From Eledone cirrhosa (lineage: Eukaryota): a stretch of DNA of 64,000 nt. Below are positions 1,350 through 63,113 of the stretch, in pieces. The notes beneath the pieces are model-generated. The model did no database searches, was not told where the DNA came from, and saw only the letters and a list, made by a program, of their open reading frames with translations. The first letter of the stretch is position 1, and the number at the start of each line of letters is the position of its first letter. The stretch spans positions 322,276,001-322,340,000 of the forward strand of contig OZ024741.1 in assembly GCA_964016885.1 (NCBI GenBank), in the 5' to 3' direction. Both the position numbers and the translations under genes were made by a program.

Positions 1350-4128
1350 GTATGTATGTTTTCTCTTTCTCTTAATTTCGAGTATATTTTTTTTGACCGG
1401 CCACCTTCCTGGTGGCAAGGTTGTAAAAGAAAAGAAATTGTCATCCCTTGAATCGCAAGAATGTTTTGCAAATTTTGAAGGTGCCAGCTATCGCAGCCAT
1501 TTGTAGACTATGAATTAGGGAGCTGCGCTTTTTGTCCGCAAATCCAAGTTCAGTCATACTTTGGTCCAAGCGGGTTGGTATATAACCCGTAGCACCAATA
1601 ATGATGGGTATGAAGCTAAAGGTGTATCTTGGATACTGGATTTGTAAACTCCTCATCAATGGTCCGTAGATGTCCTCCTTCTCCTGTATTTTTCTGACAA
1701 CGTTTACATCAAGTGGGCAGCTGATCTCCACAACAGAACACGTTTTTAATGTGTGGTCCCAAACTACAATATCAGGCCGGTTGTGCTTTAATTTGGTGGC
1801 AGTTTTTATTTTCAGGTTCCACCAGTATTCCTTAGTGCCATCTGTCTCAATATATTCTTCCTCGTTTGTTGTTAATTTTGTTTTCCGAAGTGCGTTCCAG
1901 ATGGTTCTAGCTATCCCATCGTGTCTCATGGGGAGGTAGTAGCGAGATGACATTCTTTCGCAGCTGGCAACAATGTGGCTTACATCCTCGATCTTTGTTT
2001 TACATAGCCTACATTTATTGTCAGCTGCTGGCCCTCCTCTTTTGTGCAGCAGATATTTGGTAGGGAGTTCTTGTTCCTGTATTGCATAGAGATATCCCTC
2101 AAGGTGTGATGTCATAAACTTGTCGGAACTCCATGCCAGGCTTTTTGAGTGGTTTATCCCCTCTATGGTCTGTGTTTTACGCCTCAAGTATCCATGCACA
2201 ACTTTTTCTGTAAATTGGTCAATTTTTTTTATCTTGTTTGAACATTGAATAGGATCTTCCGATTTCTCTGGGTGAGAGATTTATATCAGGCTTTATTCTA
2301 TATCTCTCCTCCAGATCAGTCGCTATTCTAATGATATTTCTTTTTTCATGGTCATAAACCTGGGCAAGATGGTTGCCAACCTTTTTCCTCTGTTGAAGGT
2401 GTTGCTTCAGTGTTACAATCCGGGTCTCATATGTTGTTAATATTGATTTTAGACCCCGGCCACCTTCCTTGCGTGAGAAGTATAGCCTATCCACATCACC
2501 ATTGATGTTAAAGTTCCCAGTAACACTGAGAAGTTTTCGAATTCTAACATCCATCTCACTTAGTTCTTGCAATGACCAGTTCAGTAGGCCAAATGTTGGC
2601 GTTAGAATTGGCACAGCATAAGTATTGTGGGCAATGTATTTGTTGTATGCTGACAGTTCTGATGACCATATTTTCTTTACTCTTCTGAGGTATTCAGTTC
2701 TGGTTCTCTCCTTATTTATGGGTCCATCATATCTGACATTCTCATCCTGTCCAAGATATCTGTAGTTGTCACCTGACTGCAGAGGTTGTATTGTCAGGCC
2801 GTTCATCTCTAGATTTCTAGAGGAGGGCACAGCTCTTCCACGTTTTACTGCCAAATATGCACACTTGGACTCACCAAATTTCATTTTGATGTCGGTTGAA
2901 AATTGTGTAATGAGGTCCAATTGTTTCTTGATGTCATTGATATTTGGCCCATACAACTTCAGGTCATCAACAAAGAAAAGATGGGAGATACTTCTGGGCC
3001 CACTTCTTTGTCCACCTTGTTTCCTGAGTAGGTAAGATAGTGGATTCAGTGAGAGAACGAAGAGTAGCACTGACAAGCTATCACCCTGAAAGATGCCCTT
3101 CTGGTAATGTATCTTATCAGTCTTAACCTGCTCCTTCTCACCTCTAAGGATCAAACTGGTGTACCAGTTCTTGGTCAGGCGTTCAACAGCAGCTACCAAT
3201 GGTTGTGGGACTTTAGCTAACTGTAAAGCCTTAACAATCCACCCATGAGGTACACTATCAAATGCTTTTTGATAGTCCAGCCACACGACAGTCATGTTTC
3301 TGCGATTCTTTGTTGTTTTTTCCTAAATCATTTTGTTAGTTAGTAGGTGATCTATGCAACCCCACACCCCCCTCTTTCCACCAGCTTGCTCAGGTGTTAT
3401 GATGTTGTTGGTAGCACAGTGATCCTGTAAGAACAGGTTAAGGCACCCAGTATATAATTTATACATGATGTTTTGGCAGGAAATTGGGCGGTAATTTTTA
3501 GCAAGGGTGGTTTGGCTATTTTGGGGAATGAGGAGAGTAGAGGCAGTTGATAACCATCTGGGCAGTTCTTGTGTGCCCTTAATGGTTTCTGTAAACAGCC
3601 GTATGAGATCTTGCCGATAGAAAGTGAAATTCTTCAACCAGTATCCTGTAATGAGGTCTGGGCCTGGCGATTTCCTATTCGACATTTTCTGTAGAGCTGT
3701 TTCCAGTATTGACCCATCTATGTCATATTGTTTTGTCTGGACATGTTGGCAGTAGTCCTGTTCCAGTTCTTTTAGCCAATTAGCTTGTCTGTTGAATCCG
3801 TCATCCGTTTCCCATACAGATCTCCAGTAGCTCTCAACCTGTTCTTTTGAAGGGGTGTCATTTACAGAGATTGAGCTTTTGCCACCGAAGCTGCGATAAA
3901 CTGATTTAGGATCTCTGGAAAACAATCTATTTAGCACTTGTCGTTTATGTGCTGTTGACTTATATTTCAGTCTTTCTGTTGTAGCTGTGAGTTGTTGTTT
4001 CAACTGGTGTAATTTGGAGTTCAAAGTTTTAAATTTTGTATCTCCAAATCGTCTCTCTAACTTTTTCTTTAGGTCTTCCTGGTGTCGTGTGAAGTTGCTC
4101 TCTATGTTGCATTTCATAACGACTGCGA
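1350..4128 (-). mobile_element. 5'-truncated RLE-clade non-LTR retrotransposon (R4/Dong-like) flanked by (TATG)n
   Basis: RT motifs KSPGPD, NYRPISC, WLDYQKAFDSV, GIFQGDSLS, HLFFVDDLKL, YRYLG; C-terminal CRLC..HIVASC, RHD and RPDIVVWD...VEISCP...KEDIY restriction-like endonuclease. Confidence 0.92.
1441..4128 (-). pseudogene. RT + CCHC + RLE endonuclease ORF with one in-frame stop (3323-3325) and one frameshift (~2200-2230)
   Basis: ORFs 3323..4225 and 2219..3295 share a frame; 1441..2199 is in another frame after a homopolymer run. Confidence 0.88.
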
Positions 4129-4220
4129 TGTGTGTATGTATGTATGTATGTATGTATGTATGTATGTATGTATGTATGTATGTATGTATGTATGTATGTA
4201 TGTATATATATAGAGATATA

Positions 4221-4530
4221 TGCATGACTTAGTGTTTAGAGCGTCGAGCTTACAATCGTGGGGTTGTGAGTTCTATTCTCGGACCGGGCTTTGCGTTGTG
4301 TTCTTGAGCAAGACACTTTATTTCATGTTGCTCCAGTTCACTGAGTTGTAGAAATAAGTTGCGACGTCAATGGTGCCAAGCTGTATCGGCCTTTGTCTTC
4401 CCCCTGGATACATTTGTGGCATGGAGAGGGGAGACTGGCATGCATGGATGACTCTGGTCTTCCGCAAACAACTGGAGTGGAACTTTCTAGGCGCAATTCC
4501 CATGGTCATTCGTAACCGAAGAGGATCTTA
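4221..4530 (+). mobile_element. tRNA-derived SINE with V-domain-like core
   Basis: A-box-like tgacttagtgtttag, B-box-like gagttctattct, core gtgttcttgagcaagacactttatttc. Confidence 0.75.
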
Positions 4531-9969: not shown

Positions 9970-10040
<71 letters not shown>

Positions 10041-10070
10041 AGATCAAAAGATGGTTAAATGAGTTCCATG

Positions 10071-10141
10071 TATTTTATTATGCGCATTTCAAAAACAAAT
10101 ATCATCATGCAATAACATTTGAGTTTTCATCAGATAAAATA
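10071..10141 (-). ncRNA. Minimal type I hammerhead ribozyme in the PLE-1 3' pseudo-LTR
   Basis: Minus strand tattttat-CTGATGA-long stem II-GAAA-tgcgca-TA-ataaaata; 8-bp stem I, palindromic stem III. Confidence 0.85.
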
Positions 10142-10505
10142 AGAGGACATGATATGAAGGTTAAAAAACACTTGTGGATAGTGCAGTTTTAAATCAACAT
10201 ATGAAAAGTAGTTTTAGATTGATGTGTGATATTGGGGAAAACAAATTTTTGAGGGGGTGGGGGGTGGAAAGGATGAAAAAGAGGAGGAGATGAGAGTAAA
10301 AAGTGGAGGGGGAGGAGTATAGTGAGGAAGGATGAGATAGGAGGAGAGATAGGTGATAGAGAGAGAGAGATAGCTTTTATAACTGAGAAAAATATATTGT
10401 TTTACATAGAGAGGTTGAAAAAACCGTTGGAAGATAATGTATAAATTAAAAGAATTTGAAAATTAACGAAGAGAAAAATAATGTAAAGTTAAGGTTTGTA
10501 TATTG

Positions 10506-10673
10506 AAGGGTTTAATAATATGTGCGATGAAAAGAAATTGTTAATATGTATTAAGAATAATATTTAAGGGTTTAATAATATGTGCGATGGAAAGAAAATG
10601 TTAATATGTATTAAGAATAATATTTAAGGGTTTAATAATATGTGCGATGGAAAGAAAATGTTGATATGTATTA
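10506..10673. repeat. 60-bp tandem repeat, ~3 copies, inside the PLE-1 3' region
   Basis: aagggtttaataatatgtgcgat at 10506, 10566 and 10626. Confidence 0.85.
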
Positions 10674-10982
10674 TTAAAAAAACAGAAGTAATGTAAGTAA
10701 GGATATATTGTGAGATGAGCATGAATAAGTTAGATGAAAGGGAGAAAAAAATAATGAATAGAGGATGAATAATCTAACGTCAAAAAATGTTTATGTTTAC
10801 GAAGGATTTTTTCAAGGTGATATGAAGTAAGAATATGGTGTATTGTGTAATAATTGTTTCTATGTTAGGCACAGTGAGAAAAGGTACAGATTAGGGGTTA
10901 GAAATTAGGAGTGATGTAGAATATAATAAATATAATAAATAACTTTGAAATAAGGTAGAACGATGGGTATATTTTTAAAGAA

Positions 10983-11053
<71 letters not shown>

Positions 11054-11093
11054 CCTTTGAGAAAAGGATTCTGAATTGATAAAGTTTATCATA

Positions 11094-12390
11094 TTAGCTG
11101 TATACTTTATGGAAAGTTCTGTGGAATTTATGCAAGCAAATAGAAAACAAGTCAGTGCGTCTATTTACTATAGAATCTAAATTAGAAATAATGGTAAATT
11201 TTTCATTTAGACAGAGATTGCAAGTCTTGGATAGAGAACTGTTCAAGTATGAATAAGCAGAGGAAACCTTTTTCCAAGAGATGTTATATTTAATATTTTT
11301 GTCTTTCAAGGACCATATGAGTTCTGAGAGAGCCGTGTTGGTTCTTTTAAGTTTATATTTAAAAGACGAATGATGATTATAAAGACGAGCTTTAAAGGAG
11401 GTGGAAGTGGAGCCAAAATAGGTGAAGGAATTGGTGTCTGTTATAACTTTACGTAAATTAAGTTTTTATCAAGACAATCGTTGTTGAGAGGATATTTATT
11501 TTTAGCAGGGAAATTGCAATTGCGATTAGAGAGATTATTAACGAGTGACCTAGTGTTATCTATAGAAGGAATTGGATTGGAGAAGTTATTGGCGATAGGA
11601 ATAATAGTTTCTTGATATAGAATGGGATTAAGAACATTTAGCGAAGTTGTGTTTGACGTTGTATTTGGGTTTGCAGAAATTAGCCTAGAGTTTACAATGA
11701 CGTCGGGAGTACTATTACTATTATTATGATATTCAGTGTAGGAAGGAAGAGATTTAGTATTTAGTATTTTATTGTTGTGTTTAGAGATAATGTTGGAAAT
11801 GTTGGAGGATGTTGAATAGGAAAATTTTATAGTGTGTTTGTTAAATATTTTACTATAGATATGTGAGGGCGGGAAGCATTTATTTAAGGCACTAAAAAAT
11901 AATTTAGGAATATTATTATTAATAGAGATGGAGAAAGGAGCATTATACCAGATTATGTTTTTGTATCTAGGTCTTTTATTAAAGTTATTGGAATGATCAT
12001 GATTAATTATTCTACTGTAAGATCTTCTAGAATTTGTTTCTTTATTATATTTGATTTTATCAGGATAGCCGGCTTTAGAAAGAGCGTTATTATAGTAATT
12101 GGCGTTAGCATCGAAGATGTTTTTATTAGAAGATAGGTTAGATATTCTTTTTCCAATATTACTAACTATGGCATTCTTAATATTGGTAGGGTGGTTAGAT
12201 TTAAAATTAACATAATTTAGGTTCTCATTGTTTTTAATATAGGCCAGTGTCAAGATTAAGAGATACATCCAAGAAATTAGCTAGTTTGATGCTGTTATCA
12301 AATTCAATTTTTAGGTTATGTTGGTTAAAGAGATTACGTATATTGTTCTTAATAATATTAAGGTTAACTGTGTTGCAATTTAAGATAGTA
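11094..12390 (-). pseudogene. PLE RT C-terminus plus GIY-YIG endonuclease, frameshifted
   Basis: ORFs 11441..12268 and 11094..11309 align in order with the PLE-2 protein. Confidence 0.85.
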
Positions 12391-12420
12391 AAGAGTCTTT
12401 TTAACCTTCATATCATGTCC

Positions 12421-12491
12421 TATTTTATCTGATGAAAACACAAATGTTATTGCATGATGATATTTGTTTTTGAAATGCGCATAATAAAATA
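12421..12491 (+). ncRNA. Minimal type I hammerhead ribozyme in the inverted pseudo-LTR of PLE-1
   Basis: tattttat(12421-28) CTGATGA(12429-35) stem II GAAA(12472-75) tgcgca TA ataaaata(12484-91). Confidence 0.85.
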
Positions 12492-12614
12492 CATGGAACT
12501 CATTTAACCATCTTTTGATCTTATATATTATGTATACTCCAGTCCTACAAACTGTAGAGTGCTTCTTATCCGATATCTGCATTGCTTTATTGTACTACAA
12601 TAAAACTCACCTCC

Positions 12615-12686
<72 letters not shown>

Positions 12687-12712
12687 TCTCATCTATATTA
12701 ATACATATATAT

Positions 12713-12786
12713 ATATTCGAAAATATTCTGTATGTTTATAATAAACATTTTGAAGACCTAATCGCTATAGAATAGAATACGTCACG
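12713..12786 (-). repeat. 74-bp inverted copy of part of the 311-bp unit at the 5' end of the array
   Basis: Exact reverse complement of 12856-12929. Confidence 0.95.
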
Positions 12787-15700
12787 ACGATTTCTAACGA
12801 GAATGAAACGCGTAGACTTACTTCCCTTGCTTTTATCGAGAATCTAATTGTAATACGTGACGTATTCTATTCTATAGCGATTAGGTCTTCAAAATGTTTA
12901 TTATAAACATACAGAATATTTTCGAATATTCTATGTCTATATTCACATATATATCGCTATTTCAGAGCATTTATTCCAATTTCTAATTTCTGCCGGACCG
13001 GCAACCGCTCTTTCAAACCAGTTCCTGTACACAGCTAAGTATTCTATAAGTCTCTAGCTGTGTCATTCTCGATAAAAGCACTGGATATGTAGTCCTGACG
13101 ATTTCTAACGAGAATGAAACGCGTAGACTTACTTCCCTTGCTTTTATCGAGAATCTAATTGTAATACGTGACGTATTCTATTCTATAGCGATTAGGTCTT
13201 CAAAATGTTTATTATAAACATACAGAATATTTTCGAATATTCTATGTCTATATTCACATATATATCGCTATTTCAGAGCATTTATTCCAATTTCTAATTT
13301 CTGCCGGACCGGCAACCGCTCTTTCAAACCAGTTCCTGTACACAGCTAAGTATTCTATAAGTCTCTAGCTGTGTCATTCTCGATAAAAGCACTGGATATG
13401 TAGTCCTGACGATTTCTAACGAGAATGAAACGCGTAGACTTACTTCCCTTGCTTTTATCGAGAATCTAATTGTAATACGTGACGTATTCTATTCTATAGC
13501 GATTAGGTCTTCAAAATGTTTATTATAAACATACAGAATATTTTCGAATATTCTATGTCTATATTCACATATATATCGCTATTTCAGAGCATTTATTCCA
13601 ATTTCTAATTTCTGCCGGACCGGCAACCGCTCTTTCAAACCAGTTCCTGTACACAGCTAAGTATTCTATAAGTCTCTAGCTGTGTCATTCTCGATAAAAG
13701 CACTGGATATGTAGTCCTGACGATTTCTAACGAGAATGAAACGCGTAGACTTACTTCCCTTGCTTTTATCGAGAATCTAATTGTAATACGTGACGTATTC
13801 TATTCTATAGCGATTAGGTCTTCAAAATGTTTATTATAAACATACAGAATATTTTCGAATATTCTATGTCTATATTCACATATATATCGCTATTTCAGAG
13901 CATTTATTCCAATTTCTAATTTCTGCCGGACCGGCAACCGCTCTTTCAAACCAGTTCCTGTACACAGCTAAGTATTCTATAAGTCTCTAGCTGTGTCATT
14001 CTCGATAAAAGCACTGGATATGTAGTCCTGACGATTTCTAACGAGAATGAAACGCGTAGACTTACTTCCCTTGCTTTTATCGAGAATCTAATTGTAATAC
14101 GTGACGTATTCTATTCTATAGCGATTAGGTCTTCAAAATGTTTATTATAAACATACAGAATATTTTCGAATATTCTATGTCTATATTCACATATATATCG
14201 CTATTTCAGAGCATTTGTTCCAATTTCTAATTTCTGCCGGACCGGCAACCGCTCTTTCAAACCAGTTCCTGTACACAGCTAAGTATTCTATAAGTCTCTA
14301 GCTGTGTCATTCTCGATAAAAGCACTGGATATGTAGTCCTGACGATTTCTAACGAGAATGAAACGCGTAGACTTACTTCCCTTGCTTTTATCGAGAATCT
14401 AATTGTAATACGTGACGTATTCTATTCTATAGCGATTAGGTCTTCAAAATGTTTATTATAAACATACAGAATATTTTCGAATATTCTATGTCTATATTCA
14501 CATATATATCGCTATTTCAGAGCATTTATTCCAATTTCTAATTTCTGCCGGACCGGCAACCGCTCTTTCAAACCAGTTCCTGTACACAGCTAAGTATTCT
14601 ATAAGTCTCTAGCTGTGTCATTCTCGATAAAAGCACTGGATATGTAGTCCTGACGATTTCTAACGAGAATGAAACGCGTAGACTTACTTCCCTTGCTTTT
14701 ATCGAGAATCTAATTGTAATACGTGACGTATTCTATTCTATAGCGATTAGGTCTTCAAAATGTTTATTATAAACATACAGAATATTTTCGAATATTCTAT
14801 GTCTATATTCACATATATATCGCTATTTCAGAGCATTTATTCCAATTTCTAATTTCTGCCGGACCGGCAACCGCTCTTTCAAACCAGTTCCTGTACACAG
14901 CTAAGTATTCTATAAGTCTCTAGCTGTGTCATTCTCGATAAAAGCACTGGATATGTAGTCCTGACGATTTCTAACGAGAATGAAACGCGTAGACTTACTT
15001 CCCTTGCTTTTATCGAGAATCTAATTGTAATACGTGACGTATTCTATTCTATAGCGATTAGGTCTTCAAAATGTTTATTATAAACATACAGAATATTTTC
15101 GAATATTCTATGTCTATATTCACATATATATCGCTATTTCAGAGCATTTATTCCAATTTCTAATTTCTGCCGGACCGGCAACCGCTCTTTCAAACCAGTT
15201 CCTGTACACAGCTAAGTATTCTATAAGTCTCTAGCTGTGTCATTCTCGATAAAAGCACTGGATATGTAGTCCTGACGATTTCTAACGAGAATGAAACGCG
15301 TAGACTTACTTCCCTTGCTTTTATCGAGAATCTAATTGTAATACGTGACGTATTCTATTCTATAGCGATTAGGTCTTCAAAATGTTTATTATAAACATAC
15401 AGAATATTTTCGAATATTCTATGTCTATATTCACATATATATCGCTATTTCAGAGCATTTATTCCAATTTCTAATTTCTGCCGGACCGGCAACCGCTCTT
15501 TCAAACCAGTTCCTGTACACAGCTAAGTATTCTATAAGTCTCTAGCTGTGTCATTCTCGATAAAAGCACTGGATATGTAGTCCTGACGATTTCTAACGAG
15601 AATGAAACGCGTAGACTTACTTCCCTTGCTTTTATCGAGAATCTAATTGTAATACGTGACGTATTCTATTCTATAGCGATTAGGTCTTCAAAATGTTTAT

Positions 15701-62213: not shown

Positions 62214-62315
<102 letters not shown>

Positions 62316-62450
62316 TTGTTAAACAATATTCAATGATTATGTCAAAGAATGGGTTTTACAGTAGATTGGAAGCACTCAACGGGTTAATAATTTTCTGGAG
62401 TTATTAATATTAAAATATAAGTATTAATAAAATAGATGTTCTTTTGATCA

Positions 62451-62513
62451 ATTACATTTTATTATACATATTTCGGATGTACAGCAGTACTACCTCATCA
62501 GACAAAATATAAT
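62451..62513 (-). ncRNA. Minimal hammerhead in pseudo-LTR 62310-62550, followed by an inverted partial copy (62559-62647)
   Basis: Minus strand attatattttgt-CTGATGA-ggtagtac tgct gtacatcc-GAAA-tatgta-TA-ataaaatgtaat. Confidence 0.8.
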
Positions 62514-63113
62514 GATACATGACATACTCTGAGATGTTAAATGGTTAAGATTTAATCAAGGTAGTACTGTTGTACATCCGAAATATGTATAATAAAATGT
62601 AATTGATCAAAAGAACATCTATTTTATTAATACTTATATTTTAATATATATATATATATGCAATTCCACCCGACTGCTGCTATGCCCTCTGACCACCTCC
62701 CAGCACACACAGACACACAGCACTCCTACCGCCTTGACCACTTCCTGTTGCGCGCGCACCCCACATCTCTCCTCTTCCGAGGAATACTCGTATGTGGAGC
62801 TTGACCGTGGAATCTACTACCATCATAGGAGTTTACCAACATTTCAACCATATCCTCTTCTTACGGAATCACCTATATAACTCACCCACACACACACCCC
62901 AAACATTTTTTTTCTCCCACACGCCACCTACACCCACAACACGCTTAAACCCCCCACACACGTGCTTTCCACCACATATTTACACCTTCAGCCTCCGGAT
63001 TCCTCTCCCCCCACCCCTCTATCCACACACGCACACACACTCCGACCTACACCACACCCCACACACACCTCTTCCTGAACATGCAACCCCGTTCTTCCCC
63101 CAACCCTTGCTTT

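Follow-up and report, generated by a model that had tools for sequence, protein, structure and literature searches.

The array and its repeat unit

We have analysed a stretch of 64,000 nucleotides of the Eledone cirrhosa genome (assembly GCA_964016885.1, contig OZ024741.1, positions 322,276,001 to 322,340,000 of the forward strand), which is referred to here as the window. The window holds an array of a 311-bp unit, with a broken PLE on its left and a solo pLTR-like piece on its right (Table 1). Self-comparison confirmed an earlier observation of a 74-bp inversion, in which 12713-12786 and 12856-12929 are exact inverted copies of each other; because the reverse complement of 12713-12786 matches the same stretch equally in all 16 units, the inversion is not tied to the first unit. 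The tandem part, 12786-17647, has a period of 311 bp and 15.6 copies, and a single one of its 4,862 bases, at 14217, differs. When the unit is numbered from 13126, the first base after the GTA cleavage triplet, the array starts at unit position 283 (GACGA), within the CTGACGA core, and its right end at 17647 lies in mid-unit (unit 168), away from the cleavage site, both as described before. The preliminary description had also placed (TA)n on both sides, and it is present left and right, but neither flank is one pure tract and both are interspersed with ends of other elements. The 24-nt piece in the left tract is a 3'-end fragment of hammerhead family F3, and was rejected as an empty-site probe since it is an F3 end and not the target.

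Table 1. Features of the window, with sites of the related families F2 and F3 (positions refer to the window unless a locus is named)
Feature	Position	Strand	Description
PLE-1, broken neighbouring PLE	10031..12619	-	ORF remnants on minus arm, inverted arm to 12619
Left target tract	12618..12712	.	(TA)31, then F3 fragment 12686-12709, then (TA)5 directly at array
Short arm	12713..12786	-	0.24 unit, unit 115 inward to 42; untailed ('B') end
Inner junction of the two arms	12786..12786	.	1-nt overlap
Long arm	12786..17647	+	15.63 units x 311 bp, unit 283 to unit 168
First of 15 complete predicted minimal type I hammerheads	13089..13132	+	every 311 bp to 17443; sequence inspection
'Tail' (unit 132-168)	17611..17647	+	on long arm only
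Right target tract	17648..17719	.	six A/T bases, ~(TA)6, 33 nt other sequence, ~(TA)10
Solo pLTR-like piece with hammerhead core	17720..17925	-	
Broken PLE, presumably Neptune-type	38067-43355		partial tandem and inverted arm
Solo pLTR	62312-62645		two-armed between TA runs
F2 sites	L050:2262-5453, L058:5390-8205, L105:1901-2827, L101, L036		
F3 sites	window 12686-12709; L162-L170; L039, L044, L072, L092, L099, L105		

The predicted hammerhead is composed of stem I, CUGACGA, a 4-bp stem II, GAAA, a palindromic ACGCGU helix III and a GUA triplet, which in the first copy ends at 13125, and by inspection against the consensus we take it to be of type I. An Rfam search of the unit with gathering and E-value thresholds gave no hammerhead match. 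Among 718 units matched by motif search the core, GAAA, helix III and triplet were intact in 715, and fixed changes within the hammerhead fell on N7, on loop II, or preserved the pairing of stems I and II. The predicted fold of the unit is more stable than those of shuffled sequences (z -4.5), and helix III is unstable in the monomer (fold +3.6 kcal/mol) as against -7.5 kcal/mol for the 6-bp helix formed in trans. No ORF of at least 120 aa was found inside the array and no RT or GIY-YIG ORF in the unit, which, judged by its sequence, would not be an autonomous PLE. The unit is tandem, non-coding, within the range of about 170-400 bp known for retrozymes, carries a predicted type I hammerhead in each copy and is dispersed genome-wide. 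The array is best explained as a non-LTR retrozyme of a young family, which would have arrived by one insertion and has a predicted ribozyme in every unit.

Family copies in the genome

In the 3.0-Gb assembly the pattern that joins unit 166 (the tailed end) to TA has 1,236 exact matches, which sets the family at 1,236 insertions at least, and the pattern that joins unit 131 (the untailed end) to TA has 1,430, internal variants included. A BLAST search with the unit provided 150 listed matches of 327 (40 of 63 candidates scored) in 14 arrays including that of the window, and among the matches listed the arrays lay on at least 10 contigs; this set is biased to long copies identical to the window array. 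We examined 74 elements: the window array, the 13 other BLAST arrays, the first 40 matches to the tailed ('A') end on contig C1, and 20 stretches that hold 22 of the 36 untailed ('B') end matches on C1 without an exact A partner. The 60 loci on C1 were thus picked by end pattern. We treated L046, whose junction bears a small extra duplication, as a single element and split L060/L061 into two; a 65-bp piece at the margin of L051 did not enter the count.

The unit was also encountered in sequencing runs under 18 organism labels, with a unit word share of 0.70-0.96, and was confirmed by reads or contigs only in run X1 (very deep) and run X3 (one contig, depth 26). Two raw Hi-C runs had 0 reads matching the unit, and the raw Hi-C reads of one organism among the 18 labels were without it. 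These records could equally well reflect spread between species or contamination with a molecule that is abundant.

Two-armed architecture

Two divergent arms, a minus arm followed by a plus arm with their RNA-sense 3' ends outward, were found in 66 of the 74 copies, a polarity which fits target-primed cDNA on both strands. Every one of the 66 pairs one A end (unit 161-173) with one B end (unit 115-140). The A end is at unit 166 in 42 of them and mostly at 166-173, the B end is compatible with 131-140, where the unit reads ATATATAT, in 51, and the offset of about 35 nt between them resembles the PLE 'tail'. Pairing of A with B was seen in 14/14 copies from BLAST, which is blind to ends, in 37/37 selected by the A end and in 15/15 selected by the B end. 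There was no divergent A-A pair among 90 A ends on C1, and B-B pairs in the coordinate list were rejected as A-B copies with an internal variant or as two adjacent copies. At least (TA)4 started within 16 nt of 130 of the 132 outer ends, 60 of which had been selected with a TA-containing pattern. The comparison of other arrays for inversions and TA targets that had been suggested for the locus extends both features to the family, in which three hallmarks of PLE-mobilised sequences are present: an inverted 5'-truncated copy (66/74), a tail at one end and a (TA)n target. In the sequence covered, the remaining eight lack the two-armed form: in five the inner end borders on (TA)n, one continues past the limit of that sequence, one reaches a run of N, and for one there is no explanation.

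Permuted ends had been among the features to look for in other arrays, but in the family the outer ends are fixed at two sites, and 17645-17647 is one of these, the A end. In the short arm, which is among the shortest of the copies examined, the RNA-sense 3' end faces outward into (TA)n, and its B end is atypical, stopping at least 16 nt short of the usual 131-140; a B end at unit 115 is rare, with 3 genome-wide.

Assemblers have difficulty with tandem and inverted units that are nearly identical, and unit counts may be off. Even so, that the architecture itself is an artefact of assembly or of long-read fold-back is scarcely credible, as the arms are unequal, the flanks differ between sides, the fixed A/B end rule holds across chromosomes, and the same ends appear in short-read contigs of run X1, in which loose ends into TA lie at unit 140 (9 contigs) and unit 171 (1).

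The arms have median lengths of 4.8 and 4.0 units and are weakly correlated (rho 0.25, p 0.04). Both are longer than one unit in 53 of the 66 copies, four of the 132 arms have at least 15 units, and the longest measures 18.9 units in two-armed copies and at least 25 in one copy. B exceeds A by more than one unit in 23/66 and A exceeds B in 27/66, and in six copies A has less than one unit where B has 1.1-8.2, with the reverse in a further six. The inner ends are spread evenly over the unit (Rayleigh p 0.73 and 0.47), and because of this even spread the mid-core start of the window array is uninformative; of the 132, 2 fall no more than 5 nt from the cleavage site, where 4.2 were expected, and an apparent cluster at unit 4 was rejected as an artefact of a common 1-nt deletion, being gone after realignment. 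Microhomology of at least 2 nt was present at 28 of 44 insert-free junctions (18% expected), and the remaining 22/66 junctions carry short, often templated inserts. The inner junction at L046:4813-4990 occurs twice, with short additional arms and the same 5-nt microhomology in both instances, a pattern that resembles iterative templated repair. In the right flank of L058 an inverted duplication of about 50 nt of the target flank lies beside the tailed end.

A self-priming model has been published for PLEs (PMC3846280), according to which one cDNA would fold back and be copied, its ends arising from endonuclease resolution or from annealing of ATATATAT (132-140) to the target. The present data argue against it, and we regard it as decidedly unlikely for the 311-bp family. 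A fold-back copy cannot outgrow the first arm, yet B is the longer by more than one unit in about a third of the copies (the 23/66 above), and in the six copies with an A arm of less than one unit B outgrows its supposed template; moreover, in vitro RT starts at both ends of the tail (PMC11167929). Junctions that are near-symmetric (within 10 nt) number 10/66 against 4.5 expected (p 0.013), a mild excess such as partial fold-back would produce and a mild counter-signal to priming on both strands, but the other 56/66 are not near-symmetric. The model would also account for the coincidence of the B end with an internal TA-like stretch and would lead one to expect identical haplotypes in both arms, and the tail has been attributed to endonuclease resolution by others (PMC8557442). 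A variant in which an extrachromosomal hairpin is cut at staggered sites in different units is possible. The inverted part of the window array, described at first as a fold-back, is better read as a second, independently primed arm, which in the family is usually several units long, and either arm can be the longer.

Haplotypes and later growth

Among the 36 copies with at least two full units per arm, 34 have the same majority haplotype in both arms, compared with a mean of 4.3 and a maximum of 13 in 20,000 shuffles; 17 haplotypes were distinguished, 12 of them found once. Pairs of a variant and an element were scored across 530 units from 54 elements, after removal of three units affected by anchor-splitting artefacts. 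In 146 pairs the variant is in every unit, in 47 it is in one unit, and 11 are intermediate, with a sporadic divergence of 0.04%. This bimodal pattern is that expected of a monomer bottleneck, or of repeated copying of one monomer. Position 277 is mixed in two copies: L072 has 277A in the outer four units and 277G in the inner two of one arm, and L090 has one discordant unit. Candidates for this, and for the repeated occurrence of 277G on several different backgrounds, are template switching between circles, conversion and editing. The idea that A-to-I editing had produced the A>G haplotypes was dropped, there being too few variants and their polarity being uncertain.

In five arrays (L039/L040, L057, L061, L062 and L105) sporadic variants are repeated at a spacing of 4-7 units, which shows that some local block duplication took place later. 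A route to satellites by local amplification from a PLE end was proposed recently (10.64898/2026.07.22.740005), and the arrays could in principle be short PLE-derived insertions that grew afterwards by unequal crossing-over. We find this very improbable as an account of the family. An arm of less than one unit cannot seed a tandem, so the template must have comprised more than one unit when insertion took place; 53/66 copies have more than one unit in each arm, only 11/204 variant-element pairs are intermediate, and the low sporadic divergence leaves little time. Where a locally amplified satellite would have variants present in part of an array, one orientation and few loci, the family shows bimodal variants, two orientations and more than 1,200 loci. 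Local growth accounts for extra units and not for the architecture. The one-event insertion of a PLE-type concatemer that the preliminary description proposed is supported by the 74 copies, with the reservation that some arrays have undergone block duplication since. Its figure of about 15 rounds of copying is uncertain, block duplication being seen in five other arrays, though no repeated sporadic variants were found in the window array.

Mechanism of insertion

We consider it probable that both target strands prime RT at the two PLE start sites on one RNA circle, that the two cDNAs are extended independently, and that they are then joined. The hammerheads would cleave tandem transcripts to monomers, which on ligation would form a circle of 311 nt. 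Both strands of a (TA)n tract would be nicked by the RT-endonuclease of a PLE, probably acting as a dimer, and the 3'-OH of each would prime cDNA on this one circle, at unit 166-173 for one strand and at unit 131-140 for the other, as the fixed ends suggest. Both RTs would then circle the template for independent numbers of turns, running straight through the ligation site, until the two cDNA 3' ends are joined via short microhomology or a templated patch. The product would be two divergent tandem arms with a tail at one end only, and some arrays would afterwards gain unit blocks locally.

The distribution of variants bears on the form of the RNA. New haplotypes are fixed in all units of both arms and sporadic changes are confined to single units (146/47, with 11 intermediate), so that a monomer step would often be needed, and it is unlikely that dual priming took place instead on uncleaved linear multimers or on two RNAs that a single donor expressed in the cell concerned. 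Twin priming on linear RNA, following the L1 model, predicts an enrichment of inner ends at the start of the other primer, but 5 A-arm inner ends were found at the B primer start where 4.5 were expected. Linear multimers would fit with the arms of mixed 277A/G, with arm lengths that are within the range of the donor arrays, and with the instability of the palindromic helix III in the monomer, which suggests that cleavage may be slow, and in vitro hammerhead cleavage is dispensable for PLE insertion (PMC11167929). An earlier suggestion that a PLE RT copied a circular or multimeric RNA is supported as to the reverse-transcribed concatemer; the circle, rather than the multimer, we infer.

Priming of both strands on one circle is in keeping with the behaviour of a purified Poseidon PLE, a predicted dimer, which nicks and extends both strands and has two RT start sites bounding the tail (PMC11167929). 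These start sites were alike on both strands in vitro (PMC11167929), which gives no biochemical support to strict pairing of start sites per insertion. A more general proposition, for and against which we see equal weight, is that PLE integration is obligately double-primed, by a dimer, at two fixed sites and on one RNA, and that two-armed arrays are born in one step. If true, one rule would account for both the one-sided tail and the inverted pLTR that PLEs show, and with a retrozyme circle as template it would amount to double rolling-circle reverse transcription, the two RTs running about 35 nt apart and displacing each other's cDNA. Double priming makes sharp biochemical predictions as to the start sites, their pairing per molecule and the circular template.

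Relation to known elements

Retrozymes and their circles have been described before, and the reverse transcription of a circle to tandem cDNA has been proposed (PMC7229834, Cervera and de la Pena 2020). Metazoan non-LTR retrozymes have, like the 311-bp family, a non-coding tandem unit of 170-400 bp with a type I hammerhead each, and occur as dispersed multimers together with PLEs (PMC7229834; Li et al. 2026, 10.64898/2026.07.22.740005); the palindromic minimal helix III is shared with axolotl HHR_Amex1. Expression and circles have been demonstrated for them, whereas for the 311-bp family the circle is proposed, and insertion ends, divergent arms, a one-sided tail and shared haplotypes do not figure in these accounts as far as they go (PMC7229834, 10.64898/2026.07.22.740005).

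Like EN+ PLEs, the family has an inverted 5'-truncated copy, a single end with a tail of 30-40 nt, (TA)n as target without discernible duplication of it, and two RT start sites (PMC8557442, PMC3846280, PMC11167929). The tail of those elements is described as 'optional', whereas in the 311-bp family tailed and untailed ends are paired in 66/66 copies. Unlike EN+ PLEs, the family has no ORF and each of its arms is a concatemer of one short unit. In L1 twin priming, which Ostertag and Kazazian reportedly described in 2001, both target strands prime cDNA, with the arms outward and a microhomology join. In that process the arms are two non-overlapping parts of a linear RNA and the products a minority, whereas here the two arms hold many copies of one sequence, the start sites of both are fixed and the two-armed form is the rule (66/74). 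Some Chlamys PLEs such as MRC1 are likewise non-autonomous, multicopy head-to-tail and inserted in microsatellites, but resemble an autonomous partner at the 3' end and are mostly without hammerheads (PMC8557442); for the 311-bp family a partner was not found in the searches described below.

Two-armed retrozyme arrays, or paired use of start sites, were not found in a search of the main text of openly accessible papers. The two-armed architecture thus appears to be new in print, while retrozymes and the PLE hallmarks were already known. The origin of the tandem and inverted structure of PLEs and of their one-sided tail has been called undefined (PMC8557442), the first in vitro study left the same question open (PMC11167929), and opinions differ on whether retrozyme arrays are inserted as concatemers or expand at their site (PMC7229834 versus 10.64898/2026.07.22.740005). 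More than 1,200 near-identical, internally barcoded insertions provide genomic evidence on both matters, and point to one way in which hammerhead satellites, as well as inverted repeats of kilobase size, may arise de novo.

Related and neighbouring elements

The unequal ends of the 311-bp family look the same in ORF-bearing PLE-1 and in hammerhead families F2 and F3, which are also two-armed. In the window PLE-1 has its untailed end at 10031 and its tailed end, about 85-90 nt longer, at 12619, both at TA. Its family has 7,858 tailed ends and 2,231 exactly matched untailed ends. On C1 a divergent tailed partner lay within 8 kb of 9 of 20 untailed ends (0.006 each by chance), a divergent untailed partner was found for none of the 20, and tailed-tailed pairs accounted for 2 of 100 tailed ends. 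PLE-type inversions had been noted elsewhere in the window, and this holds for PLE-1, for the PLE at 38-43 kb and for the solo pLTR, but not for the PLE at 18013, in which self-comparison found no inverted arm.

F2 is a second hammerhead tandem family, with a unit of 420-500 bp, an internal (TA)n and a long rod-like fold, and is older. Three two-armed copies were observed, with unequal ends and an offset of about 55 nt. One copy of the 311-bp family is nested in the internal (TA)n of an F2 repeat, whose paralogues are uninterrupted there; on one side of this copy about 50 nt of flank are duplicated in inverted orientation. F3, with 11,961 exact motif copies, has a hammerhead with a canonical helix III and an offset of about 70 nt, and 26 of 28 nt in the core and stem II are common to F3 and the 311-bp unit, which makes F3 the best lead to a putative progenitor of the family. 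Many F3 insertions are tiny and two-armed with the junction just upstream of the ribozyme core, whereas the junctions in the 311-bp family are uniformly distributed. An ORF linked to F3 was not found, a 5-kb stretch beside an F3 motif containing only a short two-armed F3 copy and no PLE ORF. Ends of the retrozyme, PLE-1, F2 and F3 often lie in one (TA)n tract (L032, L047, L049/L156, L044, L039 and the window), as if such tracts were hubs.

The search for an autonomous partner included a shorter A-end pattern, which gave 1,257 matches against 1,236 (about 2% more) and no other family with the same A end, and a hammerhead-variant pattern, which gave only 4 mutated copies of the 311-bp family. 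PLE-1 was rejected because its sequence does not match the unit. The PLE family which, from its motifs, we take to be Neptune-type was rejected for its different ends and hammerhead; its copies are 88-96% identical to each other, and a genome search with its RT piece gave 7,057 candidates. A seeming retrozyme-PLE hybrid at L055 was dropped because of a run of N at the join. In a Pfam search of 7 ORF pieces of the window only GIY-YIG and RVT_1 were found, on 2 of them, and the PLE clade labels are therefore assigned from motifs.

Among the other contents of the window is a frameshifted non-LTR retrotransposon with RVT_1 (1441-4228, minus strand), presumably with a C-terminal restriction-like nuclease motif. 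At about 49-51 kb there is a long inverted duplication (48960 on the minus strand, 51315 on the plus strand, 49175-51070) with the same ORF-like text on both strands and one motif found at both positions, which is absent from the dust-filtered self-comparison. Two simple arrays with higher-order structure, one of 3 kb and (GTACA)-type (22258-25228) and one of 4 kb and (TAG)n (27252-31283), were also observed.
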